A DNA stretch of 64,000 nucleotides from a virus, in the IMG/VR virus record IMGVR_UViG_3300047557_004034, positions 32,001-96,000 of that record. The stretch is one strand, 5' to 3'. Positions 42,993-63,250 of this stretch are shown piece by piece; position 1 is the stretch's first letter, and every line of letters begins with the position of its first letter. The position numbers and the translations under genes are program-made. The notes under the pieces were generated by a model. That model was not told the origin of the DNA and ran no database searches. It saw only the letters and a list, made by a program, of their open reading frames with translations.

Positions 42993-43370
42993 TTAACAAC
43001 ATGGTTCGGTCGAAATAAAGCTGTCTTGAACATTGATGTAAAGTTCTTCCCTGAGAGGTAACATCAAATTTCCTTCATCATTCTTCAAGAGGAATTGACC
43101 TTGATACCTACCAACTTGATTAGTATCTCTAGCACTAAATTGGTAATAAATATAATATTCGGGAGTTGCACCGGCAGGTAACGTTAAAGGCACTATACTA
43201 CAAGGTGCTGATACAATTTTTGCAATACCTGTTGAGGTGTTAACCATTGAAAAATAAATTGTAGACACCTCTAGACTTTCCATTATTTCAAGGTATCCAC
43301 TTCTACCATCCTTAACAACTTGCATTTTAAGAACAGGGAGGGTTGCATTTTTTTTAATAAAAAATTCCAT
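42993..43370 (-). CDS. BppU N-terminal-like small structural protein
   Basis: MEFFIKKNATLPVL...YQFSARDTNQVGRYQGQF...LP pattern; start set at 43370, with the TATTTATT motif 3 nt upstream. Confidence 0.55.
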   Translation of the reverse strand: MEFFIKKNATLPVLKMQVVKDGRSGYLEIMESLEVSTIYFSMVNTSTGIAKIVSAPCSIVPLTLPAGATPEYYIYYQFSARDTNQVGRYQGQFLLKNDEGNLMLPLREELYINVQDSFISTEPCC

Positions 43371-43386
43371 AACAATAAATATATTG

Positions 43387-45060
43387 CTAGGATTCTTTAC
43401 GCAACTTACCATCGTAATGTTCAAACCTATTGTGTTCAGTCGGTGTTAAAAGAAGTAATCCAGGATTAAACTCATCCTTCTTAATAAGTTGATACATATA
43501 ACTCATCCAAGTTTGTTCAAAAGGATGAGCCCATACTGTTTCTAAAAACATTTTTTTGTTTCCAAGTTTACTAACTATTTGTGGCCAATTACAATAATAA
43601 ACATCTCCGTTTGTGTATGGTACACCCTTATGAGAAATTATATTTTTATACACCGCTTTTGGGGCGTTAGGGTCCAAACCTATTTCAGGTAATCTGTTTT
43701 TTTCGGGCCAAAATTGTTCTCTTACGTTTTGTGGAACATTATACCAAGCCCACTGTGTACCATTATCACCAAAAAATTCACTATAGTTTAATTTCAGATA
43801 ATCAAAATTTTCTTTTTTTGATATTTCGAGAGAAAGTTGATATAAATTCGGAACAAATCTGTTAAATCCATTTCTACATACACCTGAATTAGGATAAAAA
43901 AACATGTCATCCTCGAAAAAAAACATGTAATCTAACTCAGTTTCTTCAAAATGTTTTGCAATAAATTGTCTACCTCCACAGATACCCAAATTACCTTCCT
44001 CAGGTATTATATGTTCAAAATCATACTCTTCACAAATACTATTATACTCGTCATATGTAGACTGGTCGGTAGAATTATTTAAAAGATATTTTTTAGGTTT
44101 TTCGATAAAAGTTTTATCATATTTTAACATTGAGTCTATTAAGGTTCTGAATTGTTTTGGAGAATTAAAAGTTATCACATAAAGACCTACCTTATTTATA
44201 TCCAAATTATTTACCTTTAAACTTTTGTTTTCTGTTTTAACTAATAGATTGTCATTTTTAAGATTTTCAAAAAAAGTACCAATCAATCCATTATCCTGTA
44301 TTTCAAAATAATTTATCAAATCCGAATGTTTGTAGGTCATAATTGTAAAAATTGATTCCTCCGTACCCATGTAACCTTCGTCCAAAGTTGATTTCAATAA
44401 ACCGTAATATATACTATTCATCTCAGAAATGCTGTCTTTTGGCCCTCCAAAAAAACCGGCTCTTGCAACTTTATTCACTTTAGCATTAACAATCTTTGAT
44501 AACTTATCATATTTAAAACCATGAATTTCTGAATTTGTCTCATAAGGAAAACAAATAAATGAAAACTTAGAAATATACTTCTTTAGTTTAGAAAGCACTT
44601 TGTCGTGAGTAAAATATCCAGCATGAACTGTGGAAGTTAAACCGCCGTCAATCCAAAACATATAATCTGAATTAAATTGGTCCATTATTTTTGCATCATG
44701 TAGTAAAAACATTTTCGACATGACTAACGGGTTGTAGTTTTCCAATTTTGCCTGAGTAGACTCTGAAAGCCAACCGACTTGATTATACCAATCAGGATTA
44801 GTTCTAATTTTTTGAATCTTATCAAAAAACTCATTGTTCCTAAACCAATTCAAATCACGAACAATGAATTGAGTGTTTTCAGGATTTCTTCTTTCGAAGA
44901 CAAATTTTTTCAGTTCTTCGTCACCGAAAATTATCATATTTTCAGAAACCTTGAGGAGTTGTTCAAACTTATCTAAATAATGACTGAAAGGTCTTGACCA
45001 ACCTTCCGATAAATCTTTTCTACCAATATCCCAAATACCTGTTACTAATGTTATTGACAT
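43387..45060 (-). CDS. HtrL/YibB-like domain fused to a GT-A glycosyltransferase domain
   Basis: ITLVTGIWDIGR, SKMFLL, FWIDGG and GTEESI are HtrL-like; LYVITFN, NLGICGGR and FFEDD are GT2-like. Confidence 0.68.
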   Translation of the reverse strand: MSITLVTGIWDIGRKDLSEGWSRPFSHYLDKFEQLLKVSENMIIFGDEELKKFVFERRNPENTQFIVRDLNWFRNNEFFDKIQKIRTNPDWYNQVGWLSESTQAKLENYNPLVMSKMFLLHDAKIMDQFNSDYMFWIDGGLTSTVHAGYFTHDKVLSKLKKYISKFSFICFPYETNSEIHGFKYDKLSKIVNAKVNKVARAGFFGGPKDSISEMNSIYYGLLKSTLDEGYMGTEESIFTIMTYKHSDLINYFEIQDNGLIGTFFENLKNDNLLVKTENKSLKVNNLDINKVGLYVITFNSPKQFRTLIDSMLKYDKTFIEKPKKYLLNNSTDQSTYDEYNSICEEYDFEHIIPEEGNLGICGGRQFIAKHFEETELDYMFFFEDDMFFYPNSGVCRNGFNRFVPNLYQLSLEISKKENFDYLKLNYSEFFGDNGTQWAWYNVPQNVREQFWPEKNRLPEIGLDPNAPKAVYKNIISHKGVPYTNGDVYYCNWPQIVSKLGNKKMFLETVWAHPFEQTWMSYMYQLIKKDEFNPGLLLLTPTEHNRFEHYDGKLRKES

Positions 45061-45062
45061 AA

Positions 45063-45698
45063 TTATTTTTTAACTTTACAAACCCAAACTACATTGTCGA
45101 ATATATCTTTATCATATTCAACCAAATTATTTTTTTCACAACTTTCAACCAAATCAGAATCAGAAATCTCATGCCAATTCCAAACCTTTTTATATATTTT
45201 TTCTTCGAAAACCTCTCTATTTTCTGAATAATCGTGAGCTAATATAAAGTCCCCTTCTTTCAGAAAATCGGACAAAAGATTAAATTCTTTAATTTTGTTC
45301 CCTCCATCACAAAGTACTATAGTAATACCATCTTCCTTTATAAAAGAAATTACTTCATCTTTCAATTTAGTATATTCGTTGTCGAAAATATTTTCAGTTC
45401 TGATGTCAACGCCTGAATCTCTCATTTCTTGATACCAAGGGTGAGAAATAATATCATAGGATATCAATTTACAATCTAATCCAATTTTTTTAATCGTGTA
45501 ATCTAAAAAACAAGTAAACCCACCAAGTGAAGTTCCAATTTCTAATATTCTTGAGGGTTTAACTTTACAGATGAAATTGTGAAAAACTTCAAAAACGTTC
45601 GGATTTTGTTGGGCCGCCCATCCATCAAATGTTGAAATACTATCGTTAAATTCTAAATTAGATTTTTTTGTGACTTTATCTTCGAACTGACAATTCAT
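45063..45698 (-). CDS. Class I SAM-dependent methyltransferase (CmcI/Methyltransf_24-like)
   Basis: ILEIGTSLGG, LCDGG and LAHD motifs. Confidence 0.8.
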   Translation of the reverse strand: MNCQFEDKVTKKSNLEFNDSISTFDGWAAQQNPNVFEVFHNFICKVKPSRILEIGTSLGGFTCFLDYTIKKIGLDCKLISYDIISHPWYQEMRDSGVDIRTENIFDNEYTKLKDEVISFIKEDGITIVLCDGGNKIKEFNLLSDFLKEGDFILAHDYSENREVFEEKIYKKVWNWHEISDSDLVESCEKNNLVEYDKDIFDNVVWVCKVKK

Positions 45699-46555
45699 AG
45701 TTGTATGATTTTTTTTAATGGGTTATATTCTGAAAAATATCTATTTTTAATTTTTCTTAATCCTTCTATTTTTTCTGAATAAATTTTATCAGAATTATCA
45801 TTAATGTAAATTAAAAGTTTTTTTATTTCTTTCAAGTCATTAATATCTTCAATTAAAATATACCCATCTTCAGGATAAATTTCTTTTATATTTTTACATC
45901 CAAAATAGATTGGTATGGTATCTGTCAAAATACAATCATAGAATTTTTCACTTATCCAATTTTTTTGATACTCGTTTTCAATTGAAATATTGAACTTGTA
46001 ATCTATTAAAGCATCGTGTCTTTTAGGACTGTTCTTCCAACCACCATAGACTTCAACAAAGTCTAACTCATTAATTAATTCTGCAATAGCATATCTTTCA
46101 GGATACAAACAATTCTCCCCCAACTTCTGATTCAAGGAAGTTATAGAAGAAGATATATTTTTGTTTTTGGTTGTCTTAAACTTTGATAAATTATCAAATG
46201 ACCAAAATTCTAAAGGGTCCATCCAAGGACCCCTCCCACCATAAAAAGTATGTGCTACAGTTTCAACACATTTTACATTATAAAAGGAAGAATCGAACCC
46301 AAAAACTGTGACATTTTCATTAAAATTTTTTTGATGACTGCCAGAAAAAGTTGGTTCGTGAGGAAATACGTAACCTTTAGCACCGTCTCTAACACTCTGA
46401 GTCATATAATTAAAAAAAACTATGGTATCATAACTTTCGTCAAACACAAACTCTATTTGTGTTAAATCTATGTCAGGTGTTTTGAATTGTTTCAACAATC
46501 TATCCAAAATGTTTTCAGGGGTATCCCAACCGGCACAAATTTTAATTTTTTTCAT
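45695..46555 (-). CDS. Glycosyltransferase family 10 (alpha-1,3/4-fucosyltransferase-like)
   Basis: YKFNISIENEYQKNWISEKFYDCILTDTIPIYFG matches the GT10 signature. Confidence 0.85.
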   Translation of the reverse strand: MKKIKICAGWDTPENILDRLLKQFKTPDIDLTQIEFVFDESYDTIVFFNYMTQSVRDGAKGYVFPHEPTFSGSHQKNFNENVTVFGFDSSFYNVKCVETVAHTFYGGRGPWMDPLEFWSFDNLSKFKTTKNKNISSSITSLNQKLGENCLYPERYAIAELINELDFVEVYGGWKNSPKRHDALIDYKFNISIENEYQKNWISEKFYDCILTDTIPIYFGCKNIKEIYPEDGYILIEDINDLKEIKKLLIYINDNSDKIYSEKIEGLRKIKNRYFSEYNPLKKIIQL

Positions 46556-47199
46556 TTAACCTTTTGAATTTTTGATTTTTTATTTTGAAAAACTAAATCC
46601 ACTTGAATTAAATCCTGACCGTAATGTCTATGTAGCTCAATCACTTCATATAATCTGAAATCATTTTTTAAAAATTCGAAAATATTTTCGACCAAACAAC
46701 CACCAATATTATATTCAACTAATGAACATTCTAATTCGATAAACTCAATCTCTTTTAACATATCACCCAATCCCTGCATTATTAAAATCTCCGAACCTTG
46801 TGTGTCTATTTTCAGTAAATCTATTTTAGTTATGTTCTTTTCTGAACAAAGACTTTCTAAAGTTTTTGTAATCCTTTTTTCTTCGATTGTATTATGTGGC
46901 ATATAGTGCTGAGTATCTTCTTTAAAAATTGAATCCCCTGTACAAAGACCTTCAACTTTCTTGTAGAAAATAATTTCCTCCCCATCTTTGTTGGATAATA
47001 CTTCTATGGCACAATCATTAGTATTTGGAAAACACCCGTTTTCATTCCAATCATTTGCATCAATTCCAAGTACAAAAGAGTTATTGAAAACTGATTTTAT
47101 TGAACCTGACCATTCTCCCTTACAAGCTCCACAATCCACTATTACATTTGGATTGAATCCTAAATTCTTAATTCTATTATAAACAAATTCTCTACTCAT
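46552..47199 (-). CDS. FkbM-family SAM methyltransferase
   Basis: VDCGACKG and IDLLKIDTQGSE motifs. Confidence 0.85.
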   Translation of the reverse strand: MSREFVYNRIKNLGFNPNVIVDCGACKGEWSGSIKSVFNNSFVLGIDANDWNENGCFPNTNDCAIEVLSNKDGEEIIFYKKVEGLCTGDSIFKEDTQHYMPHNTIEEKRITKTLESLCSEKNITKIDLLKIDTQGSEILIMQGLGDMLKEIEFIELECSLVEYNIGGCLVENIFEFLKNDFRLYEVIELHRHYGQDLIQVDLVFQNKKSKIQKVK

Positions 47200-47205
47200 A
47201 AAATT

Positions 47206-47949
47206 TTACCTTTTGTTACCATTGAATATGAAACCAAATTGTGTTTGTAGGTCTCCCGAATGTAAGTCAAACATATTATCATACCCCGCAAATTTTGCAG
47301 ATATACCTATTTCGAAACCATCACCCCAACTACCATTACCACCATTTTGACTTTGCATGATAGAATTTAATTCACTCCATTTATTTGCAAACAATTCTAA
47401 TTTTTGTTTATCATATTTGAAAATTAAAAAATGTTCACTTGGTAAACAAGAATCTATAAGTCTATCATTCATATCCCAACTCAAAACACCATATGAATGT
47501 ATTTTGTGACTAAACAAACAACTACCAATGTTTTTTAATTGTGCAATTTCACCTCTCAAAACACAATTAAGTCTAGTTGCAACAGAATCATGAGATTCCA
47601 TCAAAGACTTTAACCTTTCGTCAGAGACATCATTCCAAAATGTGTGTTTTATATCCCCATCCACATAAAAAATAACATCATATCCTTCAGGGATGTCTTT
47701 GAATGCCAAATATTTTAGATTGTAATTAAATTCTGACCCTCCCTTATATAACAAAATTGAATCGGCAGGAACATTATTCCTTACAATCAATCTTTCGTTA
47801 TTTATGTCTTCGAAGAAAGAAACATCATTCGTTGTTAACAAAATGTCGTGTTTGGTGTTTGACAATAATTCATTTATCAAATCTTTCGATGCATTCAAAT
47901 ACATTTGTCTATCTGTGGCTAATGATAGTATTGTGAATAATATTTTCAT
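47206..47949 (-). CDS. GT-A fold glycosyltransferase (GT6-like)
   Basis: ILFTILSLA...Y, LTTND, KYLA and FYVDGD (DxD) motifs. Confidence 0.55.
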   Translation of the reverse strand: MKILFTILSLATDRQMYLNASKDLINELLSNTKHDILLTTNDVSFFEDINNERLIVRNNVPADSILLYKGGSEFNYNLKYLAFKDIPEGYDVIFYVDGDIKHTFWNDVSDERLKSLMESHDSVATRLNCVLRGEIAQLKNIGSCLFSHKIHSYGVLSWDMNDRLIDSCLPSEHFLIFKYDKQKLELFANKWSELNSIMQSQNGGNGSWGDGFEIGISAKFAGYDNMFDLHSGDLQTQFGFIFNGNKR

Positions 47950-48890
47950 GATAAGAAAACTCTATTGAATTTGTCCATGATTATTTCAGGACTGAATTGT
48001 TTATATGGTAAATCATAATCTTCATATTTCAAATAACTTTTGAAGTTATTAAAAATATCATAAACTTCATCTGGATTATTGTAAATAATCGCTCTTTCCC
48101 CTAACATCTCAAGATGAGCTCTCTCACCCGAAAGTCCATAAGTAACTACAGGTTTATTTTCTAATGCAAATTCTGATACTGCCAACCCAAAAGTTTCCCC
48201 ACCACTTCTAGCATGTATCATTGCATCGCACGCATTAACAAAAGATGATTTGGTTTCCAAATTCCACGAACCAGGTAAAAATTTTACCTTCGGGTGGTCA
48301 ACAAACTTGTTTATGTTCATGAATATAAATTCTATGTCCTCTCTTTCATTAACTGTTTTTATAATCATTTCTTTTACAAATTCTATATTGAATTCAGTCG
48401 AACCAGCATAGCAACCGAATACTGTAGAAGTACTTGGTATACCTAATTTATCCCTAAAATTTTCATTCGGAGGGGGTAACTTCTCACAAATATACGGTAA
48501 TGAATGTGTCTCAGGAGAATATCCTTGGTCTTTAGCTAACCAATCAGAAATGTAAAAATATTTATGACCATGTGGTTCGTTAAATCTAAACACAGTATGA
48601 ATCAAAGTTGGGATTGTTTCTAAACAGTAACCATCTTGATTTCCCATCTTAGTAAAATACAAGAAGTCAAAATTATTTTCTTTAAGATAAGTTTCATACT
48701 CCCACCAATACTTTATTTGTACTTCAAATCTATTTTGGAATTTTTCTAACGCATCCATATTTGAGTTAGGAAACGTAAAAATTACACTTTTATTACCCAA
48801 TACTTCTTCATTGTATTTGGCATAATTGAACAAACTAACCTCAGTGCCTCTTATACATAATTGATTACTATGGAATGCGATTTTTTTCAT
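47946..48890 (-). CDS. GT-B fold glycosyltransferase (GT4-like)
   Basis: RGTEV, DAMIHARSGGETFGLAVSEF...KPVV; start set at MKKIAF (48890) to avoid overlap. Confidence 0.75.
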   Translation of the reverse strand: MKKIAFHSNQLCIRGTEVSLFNYAKYNEEVLGNKSVIFTFPNSNMDALEKFQNRFEVQIKYWWEYETYLKENNFDFLYFTKMGNQDGYCLETIPTLIHTVFRFNEPHGHKYFYISDWLAKDQGYSPETHSLPYICEKLPPPNENFRDKLGIPSTSTVFGCYAGSTEFNIEFVKEMIIKTVNEREDIEFIFMNINKFVDHPKVKFLPGSWNLETKSSFVNACDAMIHARSGGETFGLAVSEFALENKPVVTYGLSGERAHLEMLGERAIIYNNPDEVYDIFNNFKSYLKYEDYDLPYKQFSPEIIMDKFNRVFLS

Positions 48891-48915
48891 ATTTTGTTTT
48901 ATTTTTTTTTTATTA

Positions 48916-49473
48916 TTAAGGATAAAAAACAAGTCCTGTTCCTGTGATGTGTCCGATATCAGAAATGTCTATTTTTTTTAATTCAATTCCAAGCCAAAAA
49001 TCTAACATAGGGGTATTCAAATGAATGTCATCATATAATACTAAACCTTGATAATTGATGTTAATCAAATGTTTATGAAACATATTTTCAAAAGAACCAT
49101 CATGGAACGTATCAAGTAAAATAACCTTTGAATTGTGAATTGTATTGATATGTTTTTCATCTAATACATCGTCAATCAAAAATTCAATGTTTTCAGGAAT
49201 AGATGAAAGGTCTAAGTGATAACCAACATCGATAGAAATAACTCTGTTAGATTGGTTAGTTGAAAAGGCTAGTGCAGAACATCCTTTCAAACTTCCGATG
49301 TCCAAAAATTGCACATTATCATACTTACTCGATATAAACGACAAAAGTCTGTAATGTTCCATACCTGATGGAGAAAGGAAATATCTTTTATACTCATCAG
49401 AATTAATCAGATTAACGTGAGAATCCAAATTCAATTGGTCTAAGTCTTCATTTTTTATTTCTTCAATATTCAT
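48916..49473 (-). CDS. Class I SAM-dependent methyltransferase (Methyltransf_24-like)
   Basis: EHYRLL, LDIGSLKGCSA, LDTFHDG, YDDI and GHITGTG motifs. Confidence 0.75.
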   Translation of the reverse strand: MNIEEIKNEDLDQLNLDSHVNLINSDEYKRYFLSPSGMEHYRLLSFISSKYDNVQFLDIGSLKGCSALAFSTNQSNRVISIDVGYHLDLSSIPENIEFLIDDVLDEKHINTIHNSKVILLDTFHDGSFENMFHKHLININYQGLVLYDDIHLNTPMLDFWLGIELKKIDISDIGHITGTGLVFYP

Positions 49474-49485
49474 ACAAAAATTTTT

Positions 49486-50190
49486 TTATTTATTTAAAGC
49501 ATCCCAATAACACCTTTCAAGATATTCATCATATTTTTCGAAACATTTCAAATTATCAGAATACCCATCGCGTTGTGTGAACAACATGGGTATTGTTATA
49601 CCTACATTAAATAGCCTATTTTCCCTTTTACATAATATTTCGTGTGAACAACAATCATTAAAAAATTCATCGTGTATTACACGGTAATATGGGTCATTGG
49701 GGTCATTGTAGTTTTTTAATGTTTCGTAAAAGTATTCGAGAAAATTTTTTTTATATAGAAACGCTTGGGCACACAGCGCATTGGAAACTTTTCCGAAGTG
49801 CTCGTCTAATCTTTCTATTCTTGCACCTTCCAAAGGTCTAGTACCCATACCAATTAAATCAAAGTATTCGTAGAACCTATCCCACTTTTCAAAAACTTTG
49901 TCGAAGTCGGATTCTTGTGTACCATTCATTACTTTAATATCATCTTCGAATATTATTATCGACTCTAACCCTTCATCAAGTGCTATTTTTGCACAATTCA
50001 AAAACGCTTGAGTTGCACCATAAACTCTCCATTCAGGGTCTTCGTAAATTACACCATCAATATACTCATATCCATCGAATCCGTATTTTTTTAATACAAG
50101 TTCCGTTTCGTATTTTCTATCCATCCTATAAGGTAAATTTATTACAAATCCCTTATCGGCAATTTTCTTTCCTTTATAAGAAACCATCAA
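49486..50190 (-). CDS. Glycosyltransferase family 25-like (Lic2/LgtB-type)
   Basis: VINLPYRMDR and IIFEDDI motifs. Confidence 0.75.
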   Translation of the reverse strand: MMVSYKGKKIADKGFVINLPYRMDRKYETELVLKKYGFDGYEYIDGVIYEDPEWRVYGATQAFLNCAKIALDEGLESIIIFEDDIKVMNGTQESDFDKVFEKWDRFYEYFDLIGMGTRPLEGARIERLDEHFGKVSNALCAQAFLYKKNFLEYFYETLKNYNDPNDPYYRVIHDEFFNDCCSHEILCKRENRLFNVGITIPMLFTQRDGYSDNLKCFEKYDEYLERCYWDALNK

Positions 50191-51461
50191 CTGACAGCAT
50201 TATGATTTAACTGACCTGTTAATCTATCACACCAACCTTTAGATTCTGAGTGAGGCCATACAACCCAATACTTTGGTAATTCTTGTGTTGGGAATTCTCT
50301 CCATACCTTGCAATATCCATCAGGGTCTCTCATAAATCCTGCAATCTCATTTTTGTCGGCGTCTTTTCTAAAGATAGTTTCATCCTTATCATCGTGGAAG
50401 GCAACAACCCAAAAATCATAATCTTTTTCAGGTACTTGACTGTATGAAACATCAATACAGTGTTTGAATATTTTTGTGAAATCCGCTTTCCATTCCTCTT
50501 CTGTTTCGTAGTTATACGGGTTTGGTGGATAGTTTTTATCCAATGTATATTTTTGAATAGAACGTCTTTCGAATAATATTCCTGAATATTTTTCAAAATC
50601 TTTTAAAGTTCTAACTGAGCCAAAACCGAACTCACCATCGTGACCTTCTTGAGTTAATCCATCCATACCGAATAACTTTCTATTCAAAAGATGTGAATGT
50701 TGGTTTTTCTTAACCCATTCTTTGTCATCATCCCATTGCTTTGTTCTACCCTTTCTTGTATATTCATGATATACAACAGGAACATGTGGATGGAACAAGT
50801 CATAACCCCAAGTGTAAGCTCTCGCAGCAATTGAAATTTCTTCTCCGTGGAAATAGTATTCAGGATTGTGTTGAACTTCTTTTGAAAACTCACCGAGTGT
50901 AAAACAGAAGTGAGCAGAATAGAATCTCGCAGTTACAGGTTTTTTCAACTCTCTCCATCTTGGAATTGTTTCAGGTAAAAAGAAGATTGCACCTTCAGGA
51001 ATAAATCTATCAAACACCATTCTCCATGGGTCTTTTGCTCTTCCTGCTGGGTCATTATCAGGGTCAAAAGATGGTACATAACCCGTAAGTAGAGGTTTCA
51101 TATATCCATCTTTTTGTAGACCCTTAATCATATTAATTAAAGTTTCATCCCAATTCTTTTCGAATCTCATGTGGGAATCTATTTGCATTGTATATTTTTC
51201 ATCTTTATACAATTGTTGTACTAGATGTCTTGCCCAACATACACCTTTAGCTTCTTGGTATGGTATGTCAAGAATTCTGAATCTTTTATCATCTCTCCAT
51301 TCATCTAAATTATCAAACCCGTCTGTTTCAGCATATTGTCTTGCAATACCTATCACTAAGTTTTTTGGATTTTTTGCATTTGCCAACATATCTTTTATCG
51401 TTGGGACAAGTTGTGGGTCTCTGTAAGACGCAATCTGAATGAATATTTTATTATTTGCCAT
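50187..51461 (-). CDS. GT60-like polypeptide N-acetylglucosaminyltransferase (Skp1 GlcNAc-transferase family)
   Basis: IFIQIASYRDP, GVCWAR, QIDSHMRF..NWD, FHGEE...R.YT.GYD and HEY motifs. Confidence 0.82.
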   Translation of the reverse strand: MANNKIFIQIASYRDPQLVPTIKDMLANAKNPKNLVIGIARQYAETDGFDNLDEWRDDKRFRILDIPYQEAKGVCWARHLVQQLYKDEKYTMQIDSHMRFEKNWDETLINMIKGLQKDGYMKPLLTGYVPSFDPDNDPAGRAKDPWRMVFDRFIPEGAIFFLPETIPRWRELKKPVTARFYSAHFCFTLGEFSKEVQHNPEYYFHGEEISIAARAYTWGYDLFHPHVPVVYHEYTRKGRTKQWDDDKEWVKKNQHSHLLNRKLFGMDGLTQEGHDGEFGFGSVRTLKDFEKYSGILFERRSIQKYTLDKNYPPNPYNYETEEEWKADFTKIFKHCIDVSYSQVPEKDYDFWVVAFHDDKDETIFRKDADKNEIAGFMRDPDGYCKVWREFPTQELPKYWVVWPHSESKGWCDRLTGQLNHNAVS

Positions 51462-51481
51462 GTTCTTTTTTCAGGAAAAAT

Positions 51482-51510
51482 AAAAAACCCTCTACAAAAG
51501 TAGAGGGTTT
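51482..51510 (-). terminator. Rho-independent terminator
   Basis: aaaccctctac-tttt-gtagagggttt followed by a T-run on the minus strand. Confidence 0.72.
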
Positions 51511-51536
51511 ACATAAAATATGTTTTATCTGTTGTT

Positions 51537-53855
51537 TTAATAAATCTTATTCAATACAAAAATGTCAGAATATATCGAGTTGTTATTACTGTTACTACCC
51601 CACTGAGCGGTAACCGATAACGTATTATTAACTGTTGTGTCAAATGTTGTATTATTAACTGTATTGAATGAAAATCCTTCAACCGTACCATTATTTGTTT
51701 TACTATAAGTAAATCTTCCCAAAGATACAATATCCGCGACTCCGGCAACTCCAATATTTCTTATGGTAAAGTTTATTGTGAAAGTCCATATGTCGTTGGT
51801 TATAGTTGTAAGAGCCTGAGCACCACTGTCTAATAAAACAACAGAACCTGTTTTCACTCTAAGTCTCAAAGTTTCATTGTTTCCTGCACTTAGCACGCCA
51901 CCAAAGTCTACTCTGAAACTATCTCCAATTTGAAATTGATTAGCAAGAACACTAAGTGTTCCAACACCCCCATCAATAAGTGAGTTCTCAACTGTTGTTG
52001 CACTTACCACCGTACTATTTCCTGTCTGTGCAAATAATCCGTAAACAACTGGAAGTGGAAATACTGGAGATGTACCACTTGTACCTGATGAACCTGCCGT
52101 TCCTGAACTACCACTTGTACCTGAACTTCCGTCTATTCCACTTGTTCCTGAAGAACCATCTGAACCTGATGTTCCTGAACTTCCGCTAGTTCCTGATGAA
52201 CCACTTGTGCCGGAACTTCCTGATGTACCAGAACTACCACTTGTTCCTGAAGAACCATCTGAACCTGATGTTCCTGAACTTCCGCTTGTACCTGAAGAAC
52301 CATCTGAACCTGATGTTCCTGAACTTCCGCTTGTACCTGAAGAACCACTTGTGCCAGAACTTCCGCTAGTTCCTGAAGAACCACTTGTGCCAGAACTTCC
52401 GCTAGTTCCTGAAGAACCAGAGGTTCCTGAACTACCTGATGTTCCACTCGAACCAGAACTTCCACTTGTTCCTGAAGAACCTGATGTTCCACTAGAACCT
52501 GAAGAACCGCTTGTACCTGAACTTCCATCTATTCCGCTTGTTCCTGAAGAACCAGACGTACCTGAGCTTCCATTACCACCCGCAGCACCTTCCAAATTGA
52601 TAGTCCATGCCGAGAATTGACCACCACCAATTATATTTGTAACATCAACCACCATATCACCATTAGAAGAGTTGTAACTAACAACCATTCCTATCATATG
52701 ATTAGATAAATCATATGCAATTATCACATCTTGAGCAATACTGTATCCCAAATTAGTTCCAACCACAAATGTACCAGTACTACCTGTTTGGATAGTTAAA
52801 AGTGTGGATGAAGTCGTTCTATATAAATCACCTGAAAATCCTGAGGTTCCACTTGACCCTGAAGTACCAGAAGAACCACTACTACCGCTAGAACCTGAAC
52901 TACCGTCAGTCCCTGATGAGCCAGATGTTCCACTTGACCCTGAAGTACCAGAAGAACCACTTGTTCCTGAACTACCATCAGTTCCTGATGAGCCAGATGT
53001 TCCACTCGAGCCTGATGTACCAGAACTTCCCGAAGAACCATCCGAACCACTAGTTCCTGAAGAACCTGAACTACCGTCAGTACCTGATGTTCCAGAGCTT
53101 CCTGAAGAACCCGATGTTCCTGAACTACCGTCAGTACCTGATGTTCCAGAGCTTCCTGAAGAACCCGATGTTCCTGAACTACCTGAAGTACCATTAAGAA
53201 CAAAAGATACCGCATATGTTTTTCCTAAAGTCCAAAGACCCGCACCATAAACTGCCGGTACACCACTACAAGTAACATTATATTGACCGTTATTTCCGGG
53301 GTCTGTGTAAGTTACAGATGAGATTCTGTATAATCCAATTACACTTGAGTCGTCAACCTGCACAACTTGCAAGTATGGTGTAATTCCATTGGCAATTGCA
53401 TTATTGATTGTATCCCAAAATCCTTCTGAGTTGTTAGCAATGCTTCCATAAGAGAATTTGAAACTTCCCGTATTCAATAAACCAGAATTACAGCATGAGC
53501 TAAAGTACGTAAACCCTGAAGGGTTTGCTCCTGCAGTATCTTGTAATATCCATCGTAATGTTGCTGCTCCATCTATCCCTGATAGTCCACTTGTTCCTGA
53601 TGAACCATCACTGCCGCTAGTCCCCGAAGAACCTGAGCTTCCTGATGAACCGTCAGAACCGCTAGTCCCCGAAGAACCCGAACTACCACTTGTACCTGAA
53701 CTTCCAGTTCCACCTGAAAACTGTTCAGTCAAAGACGAAAAAAATATTGAGTTTGTGACACCTGATGGGTCTATGTCATAATTCACAATTACCATCAAGG
53801 ATTCAGGTTGTCCTGAAGTTGCTAATGGTAATTGAGATATTGGTAAATTTGGCAT
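51537..53855 (-). CDS. Fibre-like virion protein with three Gly-X-Y (GSS/GTS) collagen-like Ser/Thr-rich blocks
   Basis: 772 aa; N-terminal MPNLPISQLP; (GSSGTS)n blocks separating small beta domains; TATTTATA at 53868-53875. Confidence 0.78.
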   Translation of the reverse strand: MPNLPISQLPLATSGQPESLMVIVNYDIDPSGVTNSIFFSSLTEQFSGGTGSSGTSGSSGSSGTSGSDGSSGSSGSSGTSGSDGSSGTSGLSGIDGAATLRWILQDTAGANPSGFTYFSSCCNSGLLNTGSFKFSYGSIANNSEGFWDTINNAIANGITPYLQVVQVDDSSVIGLYRISSVTYTDPGNNGQYNVTCSGVPAVYGAGLWTLGKTYAVSFVLNGTSGSSGTSGSSGSSGTSGTDGSSGTSGSSGSSGTSGTDGSSGSSGTSGSDGSSGSSGTSGSSGTSGSSGTDGSSGTSGSSGTSGSSGTSGSSGTDGSSGSSGSSGSSGTSGSSGTSGFSGDLYRTTSSTLLTIQTGSTGTFVVGTNLGYSIAQDVIIAYDLSNHMIGMVVSYNSSNGDMVVDVTNIIGGGQFSAWTINLEGAAGGNGSSGTSGSSGTSGIDGSSGTSGSSGSSGTSGSSGTSGSSGSSGTSGSSGTSGSSGTSGSSGTSGSSGTSGSSGTSGSSGTSGSSGTSGSDGSSGTSGSSGTSGSDGSSGTSGSSGTSGSSGTSGSSGTSGSSGTSGSDGSSGTSGIDGSSGTSGSSGTAGSSGTSGTSPVFPLPVVYGLFAQTGNSTVVSATTVENSLIDGGVGTLSVLANQFQIGDSFRVDFGGVLSAGNNETLRLRVKTGSVVLLDSGAQALTTITNDIWTFTINFTIRNIGVAGVADIVSLGRFTYSKTNNGTVEGFSFNTVNNTTFDTTVNNTLSVTAQWGSNSNNNSIYSDIFVLNKIY
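52070..52575. repeat. Coding tandem repeat block 3 (9-nt period; exact 45-bp and 36-bp duplications)
   Basis: 52246-52290 = 52291-52335; 52336-52371 = 52372-52407. Confidence 0.9.
52830..53190. repeat. Coding tandem repeat block 2 (exact 54-bp duplication)
   Basis: 53071-53124 = 53125-53178. Confidence 0.9.
53570..53715. repeat. Coding tandem repeat block 1 (GSS/GTS)
   Basis: Degenerate 9-nt periodic repeat. Confidence 0.85.
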
Positions 53856-53880
53856 TTTCTTTTATTTTATAAATATGTTT

Positions 53881-56800
53881 TTATAGTCCGTATTTGGATT
53901 TATCTGCATTGAAGTTTTGTAATACTTCCGAACCTGATAATGATTTACTATACATTCTCACAACACCCATTCTACCATTCAACCATTGAGAGAATTGTCC
54001 CCCGTTAAATGAACCCAAATACAAAGGTGATGTTGTGTTTTTAATGCTTGCAAATGAATGTGAATTACTTCCAATCAAATTACCGTTTATGTAAAGTGCG
54101 ATTGAATTACTTGCAACATTTGTCCACACACCTACAACTTGGTACCACGTATTGATACTCAAACCAGTAAGTGGTGATGTTACTGAGGTTACTCCTCCAT
54201 TACCTACTTCCATAAAAGTATTACTATTAGCAACTGTTCTTAAACCGTAACCCCAATCCGCAGAGGCTCCACCATCAGTTTTCGCTATTAGTATTCTGCT
54301 TGCACCCGCAATTACCGAATGATTTACCCAAAACTCAATAGACCAATCACTGCTACCTGGTTCTAATAAAGCATTGTCGGCAACACTTATTTGTGATGAC
54401 GTACCATTAAATGTAAAGTATGGAGATGTAAATGTAATGTTAGACATTGTTCCATTCAAACCATTACTTGATAAATCATTTATCACGGTTCCACTACCAG
54501 AATAACTTGAAGGGTTACTTGGGTCATAATATAACACAAGGTTACTTGTTACAGGTTGTCCTGGTGTAGAACTTGGTGTTGGTGAAGATGTTGTTGTGTT
54601 AGTTGGAGTATTAGTTGCGGTCACGGTTGGTGTTGAGGTACTTGTTGGAGTTGGTGATATTGTGTTTGTTGGTGTTATTGACGGTGTTGGTGTGATAGTG
54701 GGGGTTTCAGTATTTGTAGGTGTATTAGTTGCAGTCGGTGTCATTTCGATAAAACTTGGAGATAAGAAATCATACATTTGACCTATTTCAGAAAAATTCA
54801 ATTTTCTATTGTAAAAATATAAATTCGCCAAATATCCGAATGATTGTCCTGCCAGAAGGTTATTACCCCACATCACGTGAGTATCTCCTCCGGCTCCAAA
54901 AGCAACAGAACCAACTTGAGTTCCGTTTATGTAAAATACACTTGATGTATTATCTCCGACCACGGCATATTGTACCCAAACATCCTCATCTGCCGTAATA
55001 TTATATCCTGAATCTTGGAATGTGAAATTATAATAACCTAAATCATCAGTTCCAACTTGAACTAAGATTGGAAGATTGTTATTCGTTCTCAACAAGGACC
55101 TCCATCCAGCAGAACTTGGGATTACTTTAGCCCATGTTACATATGTATATCCTGTTGTTGGTAAGGATGGTCCTGTACCAATAACTTGAATTGACTCTGT
55201 ACCCGTACTACAATCAAAACATTTAATTCCATTAAGAGTTGTAAAAGTTGCACCTCCCGATAAAGTGTTATCAAACGAACCTGTTAAATCAAATACGGTA
55301 GTCCCTGACCCAGGGTAACTTTCAGTTTTATTAGCATCCAATTGCATAATAAGTCCTGAAGTTACGATATTAGGTGTCGGAGTTACGGTTGGGGTATTAG
55401 TTGGAGTTTCGGTTATTGTTGGTGTTATAGTTGGTGTAGGTGTTTCTGTTATTGTTGGAGTTAGAGTTGGTGTTTCACTTGGTGTGTTTGTTGGAGTTTC
55501 TGTTATCGTTGGTGTTGTTGTTGGAGTAGGTGTTTCAGTCTCAGTAGGAGTGTTAGTTGGAGTTTCGGTAGGAGTTTCAGTTACACTTGTTGTCGGTGTA
55601 TTTGTTAATGTTGGAGTTGGTGTGAGAGTTTCACTTTCTGTTGGAGTCTGTGTAGGAGTTTCAGTTGTTGTTGGTGTAGGAGATGGTGACGAGGCTTGTA
55701 TTAAAATACCAAAACCATCCTGTTGTAAAATCATAGAATAATTTTCCTGTAACAAGAAGTTGGAGTCAGGCATCGTTGGAGTTGGAGTTGGGGTATTTGT
55801 TGGTGTTTGTGTTGGAGTTACATTTGGACAAGGAATTATCGAGTCTATATAACCTGTGTTTCCAGTAACAATATAAACGTTTGTTCCATCAGAATAATAT
55901 CCATCAGTAACATAAAAATATGGGTCCAAAGAATAATCTGAGTATATATGGTCTCCTACAACTAAAGATTCACTTGGAGATTGATAATAAGTTGTAGTTG
56001 ATGCCGAACAAGAAGCATTTGGGTCTAAAAAATTATACCCTAACTGAAGAGTAGTTGGGTTATATATTGAAGGGTCAGGACAAGGTCCGACATAAGAATA
56101 ACGACCATCTCCCGATATAATTAACACGCTGTTGTAATCACCGCAAAAGTCATTACTCCAATCTTCGACTCCTGTCATTTGAATAGTGTTACCGGAACAA
56201 TCAGTAAATTCGAATGTAGGATTTTGTGGTCCAACATAAATAAAACGTATTATTGAACAAGATTCAAAAATTGTGGTGTGAGATGGTGTCACAGTTGGTG
56301 TCATAGTTGGTGTTTGAGTATTTGTTGGTGTTTGAGAAACTGGAATTAAAGTACAATCTATCAATCCTCCATTTTCATTCAATATTGCCCAATTATAAAC
56401 TATATCACCATCATAATAACTTATATCAATACCACCTATTGCAATTCTAGTATTTTGAAGTTGACCAATAAATAATACCCCTGTTGAAGAAATAATGCCA
56501 TTATCGAAAGTATTATCGAAACTACCATTCGAATTCAATCTAATTATCTTATAAGAAGATACTCCCGAATAAGAAGTGAATTGTCCTGCCGCAAGTATTT
56601 TACCATCAGTCTGTAAACCAATCGATAAAACTTGAGCATTAAATCCTGTTCCGTAGTTGAATGTGTTGTCAATTGTGGCGTCAACATTCAACCTTATAAT
56701 TCTATTTGCAGAAACACCTGAATATGTTGTAAATTGTGCACCTGCACAAATAATTTTACCATCAGGTTGTATTGCTAATTCACTGACTGTATTGTTGAAT

Positions 56801-59412
56801 CCGTTTGTTGTATTGAATGTGTTGTCGTAGCTACCGTTAGAATTAATTCTTACAATATGTTCCGCAACATTACCGTTATAATTTGTAAACGAACCTGCAA
56901 CAATCAATTTACCATCAGATTGTCGTGCAATAGAGAAAACCGAATTATCAGGTAATCCATTCAAGAATGAATTATCTAAAGTTCCATTACTGTTTAATCT
57001 ACAGAAATAATTTACAGGATTTCCATCATAATTTGAAAACTGACCACCTACTAATATTTTATCATCAGGAAGTACGAGTAACGATGTAATTGTACCATCA
57101 AATCCTGTACCTGTAATGAATGTTGCATCATAAGAACCGTTTGTATTCAATCTCACAATTCTTCCTGTTGGATTTCCGTCAAAAGAAGTGAAATTTCCAC
57201 CATAAACGAATTTACCATTGGATTGAGCTTCAAAATATGTTGGGTGTCCCCCAACAAATCCCGTACCCAAATTATAACTTGTATCTATATCTCCATTCAA
57301 GAAAAGTCTTACTAAACCTGGAGAGCTAGTACCACTAAAAGTATTGAAAGAACCTGCGACATATAGTCTATCACCATATTGGTCAATGTGGTTCACATTA
57401 CCATCGTTTGGTCCGTATTCTACACAAGCTTGAGAAGTACTTGGAGTAATAGTTACGGTAGGTGTAAATGTTGGTGTAATTGAAGTTGTTGGTGTAATTG
57501 TAGGTGTAGGTGTGACCGTTGGTGTTGGAGTAGGTGTTGCTGTTGCGGGTACTGGTGGTTCTTCACATTTTAAACAGAATGGGTCTAATAACCCGTATCT
57601 ATTTTTCAAGAGTCTGAAGTTGTGTCTAACTTGACCAGCGTTCAATGGTTCAGAATACATTCTAAATGCGCTAATATCACCAATGAAACTACCACCAAAA
57701 AACTTTTCCAAACGAATGTGAGTTGTCAAGCCCGAATATTCAGTTTCATCTAAAATTTCTGTTGTTAAACACTCAGGGTCTTGTTGATAGGTCATGCCCG
57801 TTAAAGTCACGGGACAACCTGAAAGTGTTAAGTTATCGTGTAATCCTTGTGTTCCCCCACCCAAAGAAATATTATATGCAACACCCACTTGTGTTTCACG
57901 AGCGGTGTTTAGAGGTCTTGGTATAATTTCTTCGAAGTTTTCAACAACCAAAAATAATTTACCATTGACGTAAAATCTAAAAGAACCTAATCTATCATTT
58001 TTTTCATCTACCCATCTTTCAGTGATATTAACGACTTCGACTGTCGCTGGGTCATAAGGTATTTCTTGTGTTATTGGTGGTTCAATAAGACTAACACTAT
58101 TGTGAGCTGATGACGCAGTGAATACTGTTTTGACTATTTCACCCAACCCACCTTTATAAAGTAAGTCACAATCATCCCAATAGGTATATCTTTGGAAGAC
58201 TGCATCAATCTGAACCCATCTTTCTTCTTGACTATAAGTTGTTCCTGAACAATCATCAAAAATTCCTCTTGTTGAACACCATTCAGTTACACTTGTTCCG
58301 GTAGTGTAAGTTATTCCTGTAGAACAAACTCCGGTAGTTTCACAACCACCAGTTATTCTATAAGTTTTTACACACAACCTTGGACTACCTGTATCACCAC
58401 TGAGTCTCAAAGATAAAGCATTCGAAACACCATCATATAACGGGTTTAACTCAGGGATGGATGCATATGTAGTACAATTACAAGGACAATTTCCACAGGC
58501 ACAATTCTGAGAAGTAACTCCAGATTGTTGATAAACATATCCACATGTTGATGCGGTATACCCTGTTTGAGAACAACCGCAAGTTTGTAGACAATTTAAT
58601 CCTTCTGTTACTCTTGTATAACCCGAATCAGTTATCGGTGAACCATTTGCATAATGATAAAATTTGTTTTCTGCTCTAGTTCCATAATAGAAGAAAATAC
58701 CTTTGTTGTCAGGATACCTTTCATTCAAACCTACGCTCGTATCACCTGTCCATCTGTATCTTAACATGAACTCTGATGACCAACCTAAATTAAATCTTTC
58801 AGGTAAAACTTCATAATCATAACCAAATGACTTGTAAAATCCTTGGTAAAATCCTCCGTCGAATTTTATATAATTTCCGACAGCATTTGCATCATTATCA
58901 ATTGATAAATTATATGTGTAAGAATCGTCGTTATATATTCTATCAGAAGTAGTTGTGAACCCTGTGATTGGGTGCATCTTAAATCTTCTATCGTATTTGT
59001 ATCTTGAAAATTTATCCGCAGTAGAAGTATATAATCCTGTATTTAATTCTATCGTTTCGCCTGAAAATCTTTTTACCAAACCATTATCCATCCCTGTCAG
59101 ACCAACATCACACAATTCAGTTTTTGCAGAACAAACCAACAAATCGATTCCTAAAGGGTTCCAATAATTTTCTGAAACAATTACGTCACTATCAAAGTTA
59201 CCACAATTGATACAATTAATAGTGTTTGGACTATTGATGTCAAAATTTAACGGCATCCTATTGCCGTCATCTTCACCTATTAAAAATGGTGAAAAAATAA
59301 CTTCTTCATCGTAATCACGTTCATCCGATGCCAATGAGATATCGGTAATTTCATTTAGAGGTTTAAGATATAACCTCTTGAACACATATTGATTTATATT
59401 CTGATATGACAT
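53881..59412 (-). CDS. Large multidomain fibre/adhesin-like protein: LamG-like domains, delta-60 beta-propeller repeats, mucin-like Thr-Pro linkers
   Basis: 1843 aa; repeated QxDGKI(I/L)xxGxFTxY...RLNxxGxxDxTF (delta-60); two C-terminal LamG-like modules (LDA...SYPGSGT, YDP...SYSGSGT, FNGTSS, WYQVVG, LYING); five (TP)n tracts. Confidence 0.8.
55370..55695. repeat. Longest Thr-Pro (TPTxT) coding repeat tract
   Basis: [16 protein letters not shown]...TVTPTP, roughly 105 aa. Confidence 0.85.
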
Positions 59413-62038: not shown

Positions 62039-63250
62039 ATGTCAAAAATTAAAGTTTTATGTTTACCGTCCGACCGAACAGGTGTCGGAAAATTTAGGTC
62101 TGTTGACCCTCATATTGCATTACAAAATCAATATCCTGATGATTTTCACGTAGATATCGTATATGACCCCCCAATGGAAGACGATAACTTTTGGAAAGGT
62201 TATGATATTATTTCCTACCACAGAAGTATCGGTACCGACTTCGATTTAGGTAATTTAATGATTAAAAAACTAAACAGTATGGGTATACCTACTGTTTGCG
62301 ATATTGATGATTATTGGATGCCAGGTAAAGAACACCCAATTCATGACATAATCAGGGTAAATAAAATCAACGAAAAGATTGTTAACAATATACGTGATTC
62401 AAAATATGTCACAACAACGACAACTTTATTTGCAGACGAAATAAAGAAGACAAATAAGAATGTTACAATTTTTCCCAATGGGATAAATCCAAACGAAGCC
62501 CAATTTAAAGAACCCACACCTGAATCTGATAGAATCAGAGTTGGGTGGTTAGGTGGTTCTTCACATCTTCATGATTTACAACTTTTGGAACAATCGTTCA
62601 GTAAATTGATTCCTTTGAAAGATAAAGTTCAATATGTTCTTTGTGGTTTTGATACCAGAGGAAGTGTTACTGAAATTAATAAGGAAACAGGAGAACAAAA
62701 AAGAAGAGATATTAAACCTGAGGAAACTGTGTGGGCAACTTATGAAAAAATATTCACTCAAAATTTTCAGATTATATCAGAAGACTACAAAAAACATCTT
62801 TTGAATTATAACCAAGATGAATACTCTGACATGGTAAATGAATCGTATAGGAGAGTATGGACTCAACCCGTGACATCTTATGCAAAAAATTATTCCAAAT
62901 TTGATATTTCTTTGGCTCCGCTAAAAAATCATATGTTTAACAGAATGAAATCTCAATTGAAAGTAATTGAATCAGGTTTCTATAAAAAAGCATTAATTGC
63001 ATCAAATTTAGGTCCTTACACAATAGATTTGAAACATTGTTTAAAAAATGGTAACTTTGTCGACGGTAATGCTTTATTAGTAGATGAAAACCGTAACCAC
63101 TCTGATTGGGCTAAGTATATCGAAAAACTTGTGAAAAACCCTAACTTAATCAAAGATATGGGTGAAAGATTGTATGAGACAGTTAAAGATATCTATGACC
63201 TTAAAGTTATTACCAAAAACAGAGCAGAATTCTATAAATCTATTATATGA
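62039..63250 (+). CDS. GT-B fold glycosyltransferase (GT4-like)
   Basis: TGVGKFR, DIDDYW, VGWLGGSSHLHDL and DISLAPL...FNRMKSQLKVIE motifs. Confidence 0.8.
   Translation: MSKIKVLCLPSDRTGVGKFRSVDPHIALQNQYPDDFHVDIVYDPPMEDDNFWKGYDIISYHRSIGTDFDLGNLMIKKLNSMGIPTVCDIDDYWMPGKEHPIHDIIRVNKINEKIVNNIRDSKYVTTTTTLFADEIKKTNKNVTIFPNGINPNEAQFKEPTPESDRIRVGWLGGSSHLHDLQLLEQSFSKLIPLKDKVQYVLCGFDTRGSVTEINKETGEQKRRDIKPEETVWATYEKIFTQNFQIISEDYKKHLLNYNQDEYSDMVNESYRRVWTQPVTSYAKNYSKFDISLAPLKNHMFNRMKSQLKVIESGFYKKALIASNLGPYTIDLKHCLKNGNFVDGNALLVDENRNHSDWAKYIEKLVKNPNLIKDMGERLYETVKDIYDLKVITKNRAEFYKSII

Follow-up and report, generated by a model that had tools for sequence, protein, structure and literature searches.

An island of nine glycosyltransferase (GT) and methyltransferase (MTase) genes, located directly downstream of two fibre genes with Ser/Thr-rich (S/T-rich) or Thr-Pro (TP) stretches, was characterised in a 64,000-nucleotide stretch of viral DNA (positions 32,001 to 96,000 of the IMG/VR record IMGVR_UViG_3300047557_004034), which is called the window hereafter. 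The best-supported reading, held here with moderate confidence, is that the phage encodes a cytoplasmic O-glycosylation of its own virion fibres, in which a GT60-family enzyme would place the first sugar on the fibre protein. The GT60 enzyme and a two-domain (dual) GT form a conserved bracket around a hypervariable cassette of seven further genes, and this architecture is what is distinctive of the locus.

In the 134,630-bp record, whose completeness was estimated at 41%, the tail genes for a sheath and a baseplate wedge are accompanied by genes for a DnaB-like helicase, a UvsX-like recombinase, a ribonucleotide reductase and a family-B DNA polymerase (polB), and this combination of tail and replication genes therefore identifies a jumbo myophage and not a giant eukaryotic virus. 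The giant-virus idea, which had been prompted by the polB, collagen-like and GT genes, was ruled out by the sheath, the baseplate wedge, the T4-like replication genes and the status of the entry as an IMG/VR phage record. Complete relatives possess genomes of 317–321 kb, with direct terminal repeats in one of them. A preliminary description of this DNA, made from its letters alone, had placed all fibre and island genes on one strand, most of them overlapping or abutting; strand and coordinates were confirmed, the nine GT and MTase genes lying on the minus strand with neighbours that overlap by 4–17 bp or are separated by 2–12 bp. The features of the locus are the following (aa, amino acids; family matches with E-values).

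53881..59412, minus strand: 1843-aa fibre-like protein with DUF5122 propellers, LamG domains and TP linkers; proposed glycan acceptor
51537..53855, minus strand: 772-aa collagen-like fibre with GSS/GTS triplets in three blocks (PF01391, 1.1e-47); proposed glycan acceptor
51485..51510, minus strand: strong intrinsic-terminator-like hairpin, with an 11-bp stem and a T-run after it, within the 75 bp between the collagen-like gene and the GT60 gene
50187..51461, minus strand: GT60-family glycosyltransferase, left bracket of the locus (PF11397, 2.1e-68; phrog_24687, 4.8e-162)
49486..50190, minus strand: 234-aa GT25-like GT, cassette gene 1 (PF01755, 0.0058, below cut-off and taken as a lead)
48916..49473, minus strand: 185-aa putative S-adenosylmethionine (SAM) methyltransferase (FtsJ-like, 0.0088, below cut-off and taken as a lead)
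47946..48932, minus strand: 328-aa GT-B enzyme, GT4-like (PF00534, 3.4e-4, below cut-off and taken as a lead)
47206..47949, minus strand: 247-aa protein, probably a GT-A-fold nucleotide-sugar transferase (no Pfam match)
46552..47199, minus strand: 215-aa FkbM-family methyltransferase (PF05050, 2.7e-10)
45695..46555, minus strand: 286-aa GT10-like enzyme, alpha-1,3-fucosyltransferase family (PF00852, 4.2e-14)
45063..45698, minus strand: 211-aa CmcI / rhamnosyl O-methyltransferase-like protein (PF04989, 6.9e-5, borderline, at 23.1 bits where the cut-off is 23.2)
43387..45060, minus strand: 557-aa dual GT, right bracket and constant partner of GT60 (N-terminal HtrL_YibB, PF09612, 1.2e-19)

The conserved brackets and the swappable cassette

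The left-bracket protein scored 231.8 bits with the GT60 profile PF11397, for which the cut-off is 21, and covered profile positions 2–43 and 96–350. Its AlphaFold2 (AF2) model, with a predicted local distance difference test (pLDDT) value of 94.9, displays a GT-A catalytic domain over approximately residues 1–330, followed by a beta-rich C-terminal domain. When this model was compared with the structures of the PDB, the best 29 VIA rows were all mucin-type polypeptide N-acetylgalactosaminyltransferases (ppGalNAc-Ts), with Z-scores of 19.2–22.2 and a root-mean-square deviation of ~3.5 Å over ~275 residues, whereas other GT-A enzymes did not exceed a Z-score of 16.9. A sequence search of the PDB with the same protein gave no match at E ≤ 1, these relatives being recovered by fold comparison alone. 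Among 39 homologues, down to 35% identity, the residues D95, H97, E207, E208 and H232 are invariant, and conservation is 90% or more at S96 and G206; by analogy, D95, H97 and H232 presumably correspond to the D-x-H motif plus distal His that make up the metal site of the ppGalNAc-Ts. The protein is proposed as a candidate initiating UDP-N-acetylglucosamine (UDP-GlcNAc):polypeptide transferase.

The characterised enzymes that provide the precedent are classed as GT60 in CAZy, a label that is absent from the paper describing them. Enzymes of this kind transfer alpha-GlcNAc onto Thr of mucin-like peptides with Mn2+ and without a lipid intermediate (PMC3769586). The protist GT60 enzymes, Gnt1/Gnt2 of Dictyostelium and TcOGNT-2 of Trypanosoma cruzi, share with the phage protein the family PF11397, the GT-A domain and the D-x-H motif with its distal His, the nearest solved folds being those of the related GT27 ppGalNAc-Ts, and the T. 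cruzi acceptor peptide KPPTTTTTTTTKPP resembles the Thr/Pro-rich mucin-like stretches of the candidate phage acceptors. Unlike the protist enzymes, the phage enzyme is soluble and devoid of a signal anchor, carries the extra beta-rich C-terminal domain and is always paired with a two-domain GT; being soluble and unanchored, it would act in the bacterial cytoplasm. A literature search returned nothing relevant on GT60 or PF11397 in phages. The IMG/VR relatives of the GT60 of the window number 570, and a metagenome protein search with it gave more than 7000 hits, each of which stands for one 90%-identity cluster. Giant proteins of 1300–2461 aa in which as many as four GT60 stretches follow one another are also present in the representative library (P0124–P0126, P0135 and P0143), and viral scans with two distant GT60 representatives gave zero loci for P0161 and one locus for P0173.

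The constant partner of GT60 is the dual GT, in which the HtrL_YibB domain is followed by a C-terminal half of GT-A type (GT2-like; PF00535, 0.007). Two Rossmann-like GT-A domains are seen in its AF2 model (pLDDT 90.6), and its invariant residues, W136 and D138 on the one hand and E383-D384-D385 on the other, provide one acidic motif per domain. The best Foldseek matches were enzymes with two GT domains, namely LH3, LARGE1, mimivirus R699, K4CP, PmHS2 and COLGALT1; for K4CP, PmHS2 and LARGE1 the E-values reached ~1e-9 to 1e-10, yet the template-modelling (TM) scores were just 0.22–0.28, so that the likeness is one of two-domain layout only. LARGE1, K4CP, PmHS2 and LH3 are two-domain GTs as well, with poor overall superposition; the 557-aa protein, with its two GT-A domains, differs from them in having an N-terminal member of the uncharacterised HtrL_YibB family. 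Judging from these look-alikes, a polymerising activity of the dual GT is a possibility.

The association of the two enzymes extends to cellular genomes. Bacterial GT60 homologues are widespread, and a full-length dual-GT homologue lies no more than two genes away in 24 of 75 loci, which span several phyla and a guanine-plus-cytosine (GC) content of 0.29–0.71. The nearest cellular pair, with 69% and 62% identity for GT60 and the dual GT, respectively, was found on the Saprospiraceae metagenome-assembled genome (MAG) contig CALJOK010000014.1 (L088, 7980–11092), a true bacterial chromosome with UvrB, NAD kinase and Omp85 genes near the pair and a GC content (0.34) like that of the phage. These observations hint at Bacteroidota (Saprospiraceae) as the host of the phage or the donor of the genes.

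The comparison of related viral loci covered the 80 best of the 570 IMG/VR GT60 relatives, cassette counts being made on 79 of them. The gene order common to these loci comprises a conserved fibre N-terminus, variable fibre genes, GT60, a variable cassette, the dual GT, a 143-aa gene and polB, with identities of 81–98% for GT60, 75–90% for polB and 54–75% for the dual GT. The cassette ranges from two to ten genes: in 62 of the 79 loci it has two, typically a GT25 enzyme (PF01755, 1.3e-12) and a gene of ~294 aa without a family match, and the seven genes of the window are one of the rarer expanded forms. In the nearest relative, a 98% identical GT60 stands beside a different cassette, and therefore the nine genes are better read as two conserved brackets enclosing a swappable module than as the single island initially described. 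Related jumbo phages of the group L184–L215 possess two tandem GT60 paralogues, 41–57% identical to that of the window, and some of their dual GTs are fused into proteins of 750–1030 aa.

With regard to the individual families that the preliminary description had named, GT60, FkbM, GT10 and HtrL_YibB passed the Pfam cut-offs, the CmcI-like assignment was borderline, and those of GT25, the FtsJ-like MTase and GT4 fell short. The gene that it had called GT-A has no Pfam match, but its Atlas model resembles nucleotide-diphospho-sugar transferases (TM ~0.63), the look-alikes being PF03407, GT8 and GT6 at 0.62–0.64. A 247-aa gene at the GT25-like position of locus L046 matches PF01755 at 1.3e-12, the 185-aa MTase has homologues of 51–54% identity in some related cassettes, the 328-aa GT4-like protein has homologues of 70% identity in L073 and L076, and a distant homologue of the 247-aa protein of the window is located beside the dual GT in phage Xoo-sp13. 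Transmembrane-like segments were detected in none of the island proteins.

Candidate acceptor fibres and Pro/Thr-rich neighbours

At this locus, phage-encoded GTs adjoin structural genes, and the two adjacent fibres are the only proteins with Pro/Thr (PT)-linker or S/T-rich stretches among the ~40 open reading frames (ORFs) of the window that reach 150 aa or more. Both had been recognised in the preliminary description, one as a Thr-Pro LamG/propeller fibre and the other as a Gly-Ser/Thr collagen-like fibre, and the family matches bore this out. The 1843-aa protein matched DUF5122 in six beta-propeller stretches (1.9e-68) and Laminin_G_3 in two domains (4.3e-27); it also has several TP-rich linkers, with 84 PT windows and a Ser+Thr content that peaks at 0.60 per 50-aa window. 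Its N-terminal ~620 aa are conserved in the clade, 64–83% identical homologues being found upstream of GT60 in related loci; they gave no match in PHROG, in Pfam or by tblastn against 50,697 phage records, and in the Atlas the matches were viral hypothetical proteins and one LamG lead. The 772-aa fibre matched tail-fibre PHROGs down to an E-value of 3e-48 and contains 39% Ser+Thr, its longest Gly-X-Y run comprising 58 triplets; its Gly-X-Y repeats are devoid of proline, which is unusual.

A second fibre cluster, at a distance of ~60 kb, is located upstream of the window (genome 1–16,057; L087). It includes collagen-like ORFs of 1355 aa, which is cut by the contig end, and of 1823 aa, the latter with an uninterrupted Gly-X-Y run of 365 triplets and 50% Ser+Thr, as well as PT-linker proteins of 613 and 616 aa.

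The co-occurrence of the island with S/T-rich proteins across phages, which had been put forward initially as a check, was found in several groups of loci and failed in one subgroup that is considered below. PT-linker proteins were found upstream of GT60 in all 33 loci that extend at least 6 kb in that direction, accompanied by collagen-like proteins in seven. In an unrelated lineage of marine phages (L168–L175 and L177), whose GT60 is 46–47% identical to that of the window, the muzzle-region proteins carry the crAss muzzle C-terminal domain; in the seven loci of this lineage that span both sides, GT60 lies between a PT-rich protein of 1092–2222 aa, with a 147-aa ORF intervening, and a PT-rich muzzle-region protein located downstream of a 762-aa GT32-like enzyme. 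Over the lineage as a whole, the PT-rich proteins opposite the muzzle-region ones measure up to 2300 aa. In a subgroup with two tandem GT60 paralogues, PT- or ST-rich genes are present directly upstream of and between the paralogues. A (TP)4 coding pattern occurred 18 times in the GT60-bearing phage records, being present in all four of them, with the C-terminus of the giant ORF325 of XacN1 among its sites, and was absent from five large aquatic myophages without PF11397 (1.35 Mb).

GT60 is present in four cultured phages (XacN1, Xoo-sp13, CM1 and RAS14), which are also the only cultured ones in which the full-length dual GT was found. In the Xanthomonas jumbo phage XacN1, the cluster ORF334–ORF330 comprises a GT60 with 46% identity, a dual GT with 41% and a protein homologous to the 247-aa one, located, as in the window, near polB. 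It differs from the window in that its cassette holds a carbamoyltransferase instead of the GT/MTase set and its neighbouring giant protein has a short TP stretch only. At least two Schiff-stained glycoprotein bands were observed in XacN1 virions and credited by the authors to phage GTs; ORF334 was not recognised there as GT60, and neither its partner gene nor an acceptor was discussed (PMC5852040). The 'moraphage' paper names the core GTs in generic terms only.

In bacteria, the Saprospiraceae pair adjoins a PT-rich protein sorted by the type IX secretion system (T9SS). In a Lewinellaceae MAG (L094, 5374–10887), the genes for a prolyl 4-hydroxylase (P4H)-like 2OG-Fe(II) oxygenase (PF13640) and a PT-rich protein of 584 aa stand in a row with those for GT60 and the dual GT, a layout that recalls the Skp1 route of hydroxylase and then GlcNAc. 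PF13640 was absent from the 134-kb record and from XacN1, and the complete relatives have three PF13640 genes distant from the locus. The 25 most frequent families among 123 bacterial neighbour genes include type VI secretion system (T6SS), fimbrial, GT and carbamoyltransferase families, and no polysaccharide-export or priming family was among them. In an Achromobacter locus (L130, 8001–15535), a GT60 homologue has Rhs and VgrG proteins, identified by Pfam, as neighbours, and the VgrG carries a PT-rich linker. A similar pattern, judged by gene sizes alone, was seen in other Burkholderiales (L134, L138, L152, L156, L158, L160, L165 and L167), the PT-rich stretch being present in the corresponding ORF of L130, L134 and L158 only; glycosylation of the T6SS spike, if true, would be a separate finding.

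Second glycan island and surroundings of the locus

The nine genes are part of a larger system, in that a second glycan island lies just beyond the right end of the window (L086, 5154–17093; genome 89,053–100,992). Its GT genes are a GT2_5 and GT4 fusion, three more GT2 genes, a GT10 and a GT1-like gene; alongside them are a Polysacc_synt_2 4,6-dehydratase, a nucleotidyltransferase, an epimerase and a CmcI-like MTase, and PhoH and nucleotidase genes interrupt the island. The two islands together bring the phage to well over 20 glycan genes, and the nucleotide-sugar genes of the second one imply that the phage can also make donor sugars of its own. The initial statement that no flippase or lipid-carrier transferase is present was confirmed, as Wzx (PF01943) and Bac_transf (PF02397) were absent from the record, from two complete relatives and from XacN1, the Wzy, GtrA/B and WecA-type families lying outside this search; the same profiles were detected in 13 of 14 (PF01943) and 9 of 14 (PF02397) control genomes.

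Two further features flank the fibres and the island.

62039..63250, plus strand: 403-aa glycosyltransferase of a divergent operon across the fibres, leading towards the second island (phrog_7162, 8e-43; weak PF00534)
42993..43424, minus strand: 143-aa protein between the dual GT and polB, 62–78% identical throughout the clade

The 143-aa protein occupies the place where a BppU-like structural gene had been described; that call was wrong, since the protein has zero matches to Pfam, PHROG or BppU and is followed by the DNA polymerase B gene, downstream of the island. The divergent operon also includes a dUTPase and an exonuclease. A promoter scan was uninformative, with 78 candidates found against 74.5 expected from shuffled sequences. 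Elsewhere in the window, the tail sheath gene (30826–34020) is unusually long, with 1064 aa, and as the sheath-family match is confined to approximately the last 220 residues, the remainder may represent extra surface domains. Two giant ORFs of 2291 and 1662 aa (14170–26346), which are not S/T-rich, adjoin the tail genes.

Proposed pathway, alternatives and significance

From the observed gene content, family and fold assignments, bracket architecture and PT-rich association, we infer a donor sugar, an acceptor, an order of steps and a biological benefit. In the first step, the soluble GT60 would move GlcNAc from UDP-GlcNAc to hydroxyls in the TP linkers of the 1843-aa fibre; the collagen-like fibre with its Gly-Ser/Thr repeats and comparable fibres encoded elsewhere in the genome would probably be substrates as well. 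The acceptor residues would be Thr or Ser, hydroxyproline being less likely. In the second step, the dual GT and the cassette enzymes (GT25-like, GT4-like, GT-A, GT10-like and three methyltransferases) would lengthen this sugar to a strain-specific, partly O-methylated oligosaccharide, using donor sugars supplied in part by the phage nucleotide-sugar genes of the second island. The fibres would be decorated before or during assembly and, as a third step, would end with a mucin-like glycan coat on their extended linkers that could serve in protection, stiffening or adsorption. The variable composition of the cassette suggests diversifying selection on an exposed surface.

This cytoplasmic, GT60-initiated route, which the preliminary description had already sketched, is supported in part by the ppGalNAc-T-like fold, the PT association and the Schiff-stained bands of XacN1. 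Several points weigh against it. The case for it is indirect, built on family precedent, on fold and on associations seen in the comparison of loci, and among the nine family calls three are under the Pfam cut-offs, with one further gene devoid of a Pfam hit. The strong terminator between the fibre genes and GT60 implies that they are not one transcription unit. The sister subgroup L184–L202 has the same succession of GT60, cassette, dual GT and polB, and 18 of its 19 loci lack any PT- or S/T-rich gene within 8 kb, the exception being L201 with one S/T-rich ORF. Most co-occurrence counts come from kin genomes and are not independent, and the enrichment of PT proteins within two genes of bacterial GT60 (10/257 versus 6/476, p=0.03) is weak and was tested post hoc. 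With further S/T-rich fibres at a distance of ~60 kb in the record, inherited synteny may account for part of the adjacency seen here, and the locus adjoins a DNA polymerase gene as well. Finally, soluble GTs can also use lipid-linked intermediates that the host provides in its membrane.

The last point leads to an alternative, considered unlikely, in which the locus would remodel envelope glycans of the host (lipopolysaccharide, capsule or a general O-glycan) through host carriers and exporters, masking receptors and excluding competing phages. Multi-GT clusters of cyanophages were read in this manner in a comparative study of jumbo phages (PMC7824862), and the GT25, GT10, HtrL and CmcI-type families are typical of lipopolysaccharide and polysaccharide loci. 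The cassette varies as an O-antigen locus does, the GC content of the island is low (0.28–0.31 versus 0.32–0.37 for most of the window), the nearest cellular pair stands beside a secreted T9SS-sorted protein, and undecaprenyl-linked intermediates are usable by soluble GTs. However, Bac_transf and Wzx were missing from the record and the complete relatives, and this weakens a lipid-linked route, although host enzymes could supply both functions. The lack of transmembrane segments in the island proteins, the fold of GT60, nearest to polypeptide transferases, and the conservation of the bracket genes at the level of core genes in a lytic-looking jumbo phage also argue against envelope remodelling, as do the recurring neighbours, which are PT-rich virion proteins in phages, and the lack of export families among the 25 leading ones of the bacterial neighbours.

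A second alternative retains protein glycosylation and changes its target: the glycans would be placed on the capsid, the sheath, other virion proteins or cytoplasmic proteins of host or phage, the adjacency of the fibres being inherited synteny. This, too, appears improbable, even though the terminator and the 18 loci of L184–L202 without a PT- or S/T-rich neighbour fit it. The XacN1 cluster is convergent with, and several genes apart from, the giant ORF325, the mycobacteriophage glycans cited in PMC12619734 are on capsid and tail-tube C-termini, and GT60 stands beside VgrG and Rhs proteins in Burkholderiales. Fibre glycosylation is favoured over this alternative by the restriction of mucin-like stretches in the window to the adjacent fibres, by the PT-rich proteins that flank GT60 in independent lineages and by the (TP)4 pattern, seen in four of four phages with GT60 versus none of five without it.

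It is very unlikely that the island hypermodifies the phage DNA with glycans to evade restriction. The location beside polB, in XacN1 also near RNase H and NUDIX genes, and the dUTPase and exonuclease of the divergent operon could suggest so, and phage GTs are known to glycosylate DNA with multiple sugars (Pyle et al. 2024, cited in PMC12619734). The relatives also carry one thymidylate-synthase-family gene; its match of 287 bits suggests an ordinary ThyA, although Pfam alone cannot separate ThyA from hydroxymethylases. Against DNA as the target stand the proximity of GT60 to polypeptide transferases, the FkbM and CmcI families, which are O-methyltransferases of sugars or natural products, the size and variability of a system with its own nucleotide-sugar genes, and the occurrence of the same GT60/dual-GT pair in bacteria that have no phage DNA to modify. 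Least probable of all is that GT60 and the dual GT build a free or primer-bound repeating, glycosaminoglycan-like polysaccharide, as chlorovirus surface polysaccharide synthases do, given that the Foldseek resemblance of the dual GT to the bifunctional polymerases K4CP, PmHS2 and LARGE1 is limited by its TM-scores to the two-domain layout, that no Wzx exporter or membrane synthase was found, and that LARGE1 extends a protein-linked glycan, so that this resemblance also fits the glycosylation of fibres.

The glycans of the chlorovirus capsid and mimivirus fibrils are virus-encoded, host-independent and made in the cytoplasm, with clusters of GT, methyltransferase and nucleotide-sugar genes alongside collagen-like proteins. 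The window belongs to a tailed bacteriophage and not to the Nucleocytoviricota, and its enzyme families differ, the likeness being one without demonstrated homology of the loci; the XacN1 paper draws a similar comparison with giant-virus glycosylation (PMC5852040). Among phages, glycosylation of virions by phage enzymes has been shown only in mycobacteriophages and is suspected in XacN1. The GTs of mycobacteriophages were proposed to glycosylate their own virion proteins (Freeman et al. 2023, as cited in PMC12619734), and the glycans there are at capsid and tail-tube C-termini of siphophages, whereas the present candidate sites, in fibres of a jumbo myophage, are TP linkers and collagen-like repeats. 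A proposed GT60 initiator, a bracketed hypervariable cassette and nucleotide-sugar genes further set the present system apart from that of the mycobacteriophages.

If fibre glycosylation is correct, an initiator of the protist-mucin kind, structurally nearest to the mucin-type transferases of animals, would be at work on phage fibres in the bacterial cytoplasm, in a very abundant clade (more than 7000 GT60 clusters at 90% identity in metagenome proteins). A broader and more speculative proposal, regarded as doubtful, is that the pair of GT60 and dual GT represents a widespread and unrecognised prokaryotic system of cytoplasmic mucin- or proteoglycan-type glycosylation of Thr/Pro linkers, in phage fibres, in muzzle proteins and possibly in T6SS VgrG, with the cassette determining strain glycan 'serotypes' and the dual GT possibly extending the glycan by a chain of repeats, in the manner of LARGE1 on dystroglycan. 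Under that proposal, the 'serotypes' would be the phage counterpart of O-antigen diversity in an abundant freshwater jumbo-phage clade. The four cultured phages with the same pair make fibre glycosylation testable. Were it true, glycan 'serotypes' under diversifying selection would bear on host range, on resistance to proteases and grazers and on immune or defence recognition, and a function would be provided for the bacterial GT60 homologues and for HtrL/YibB.

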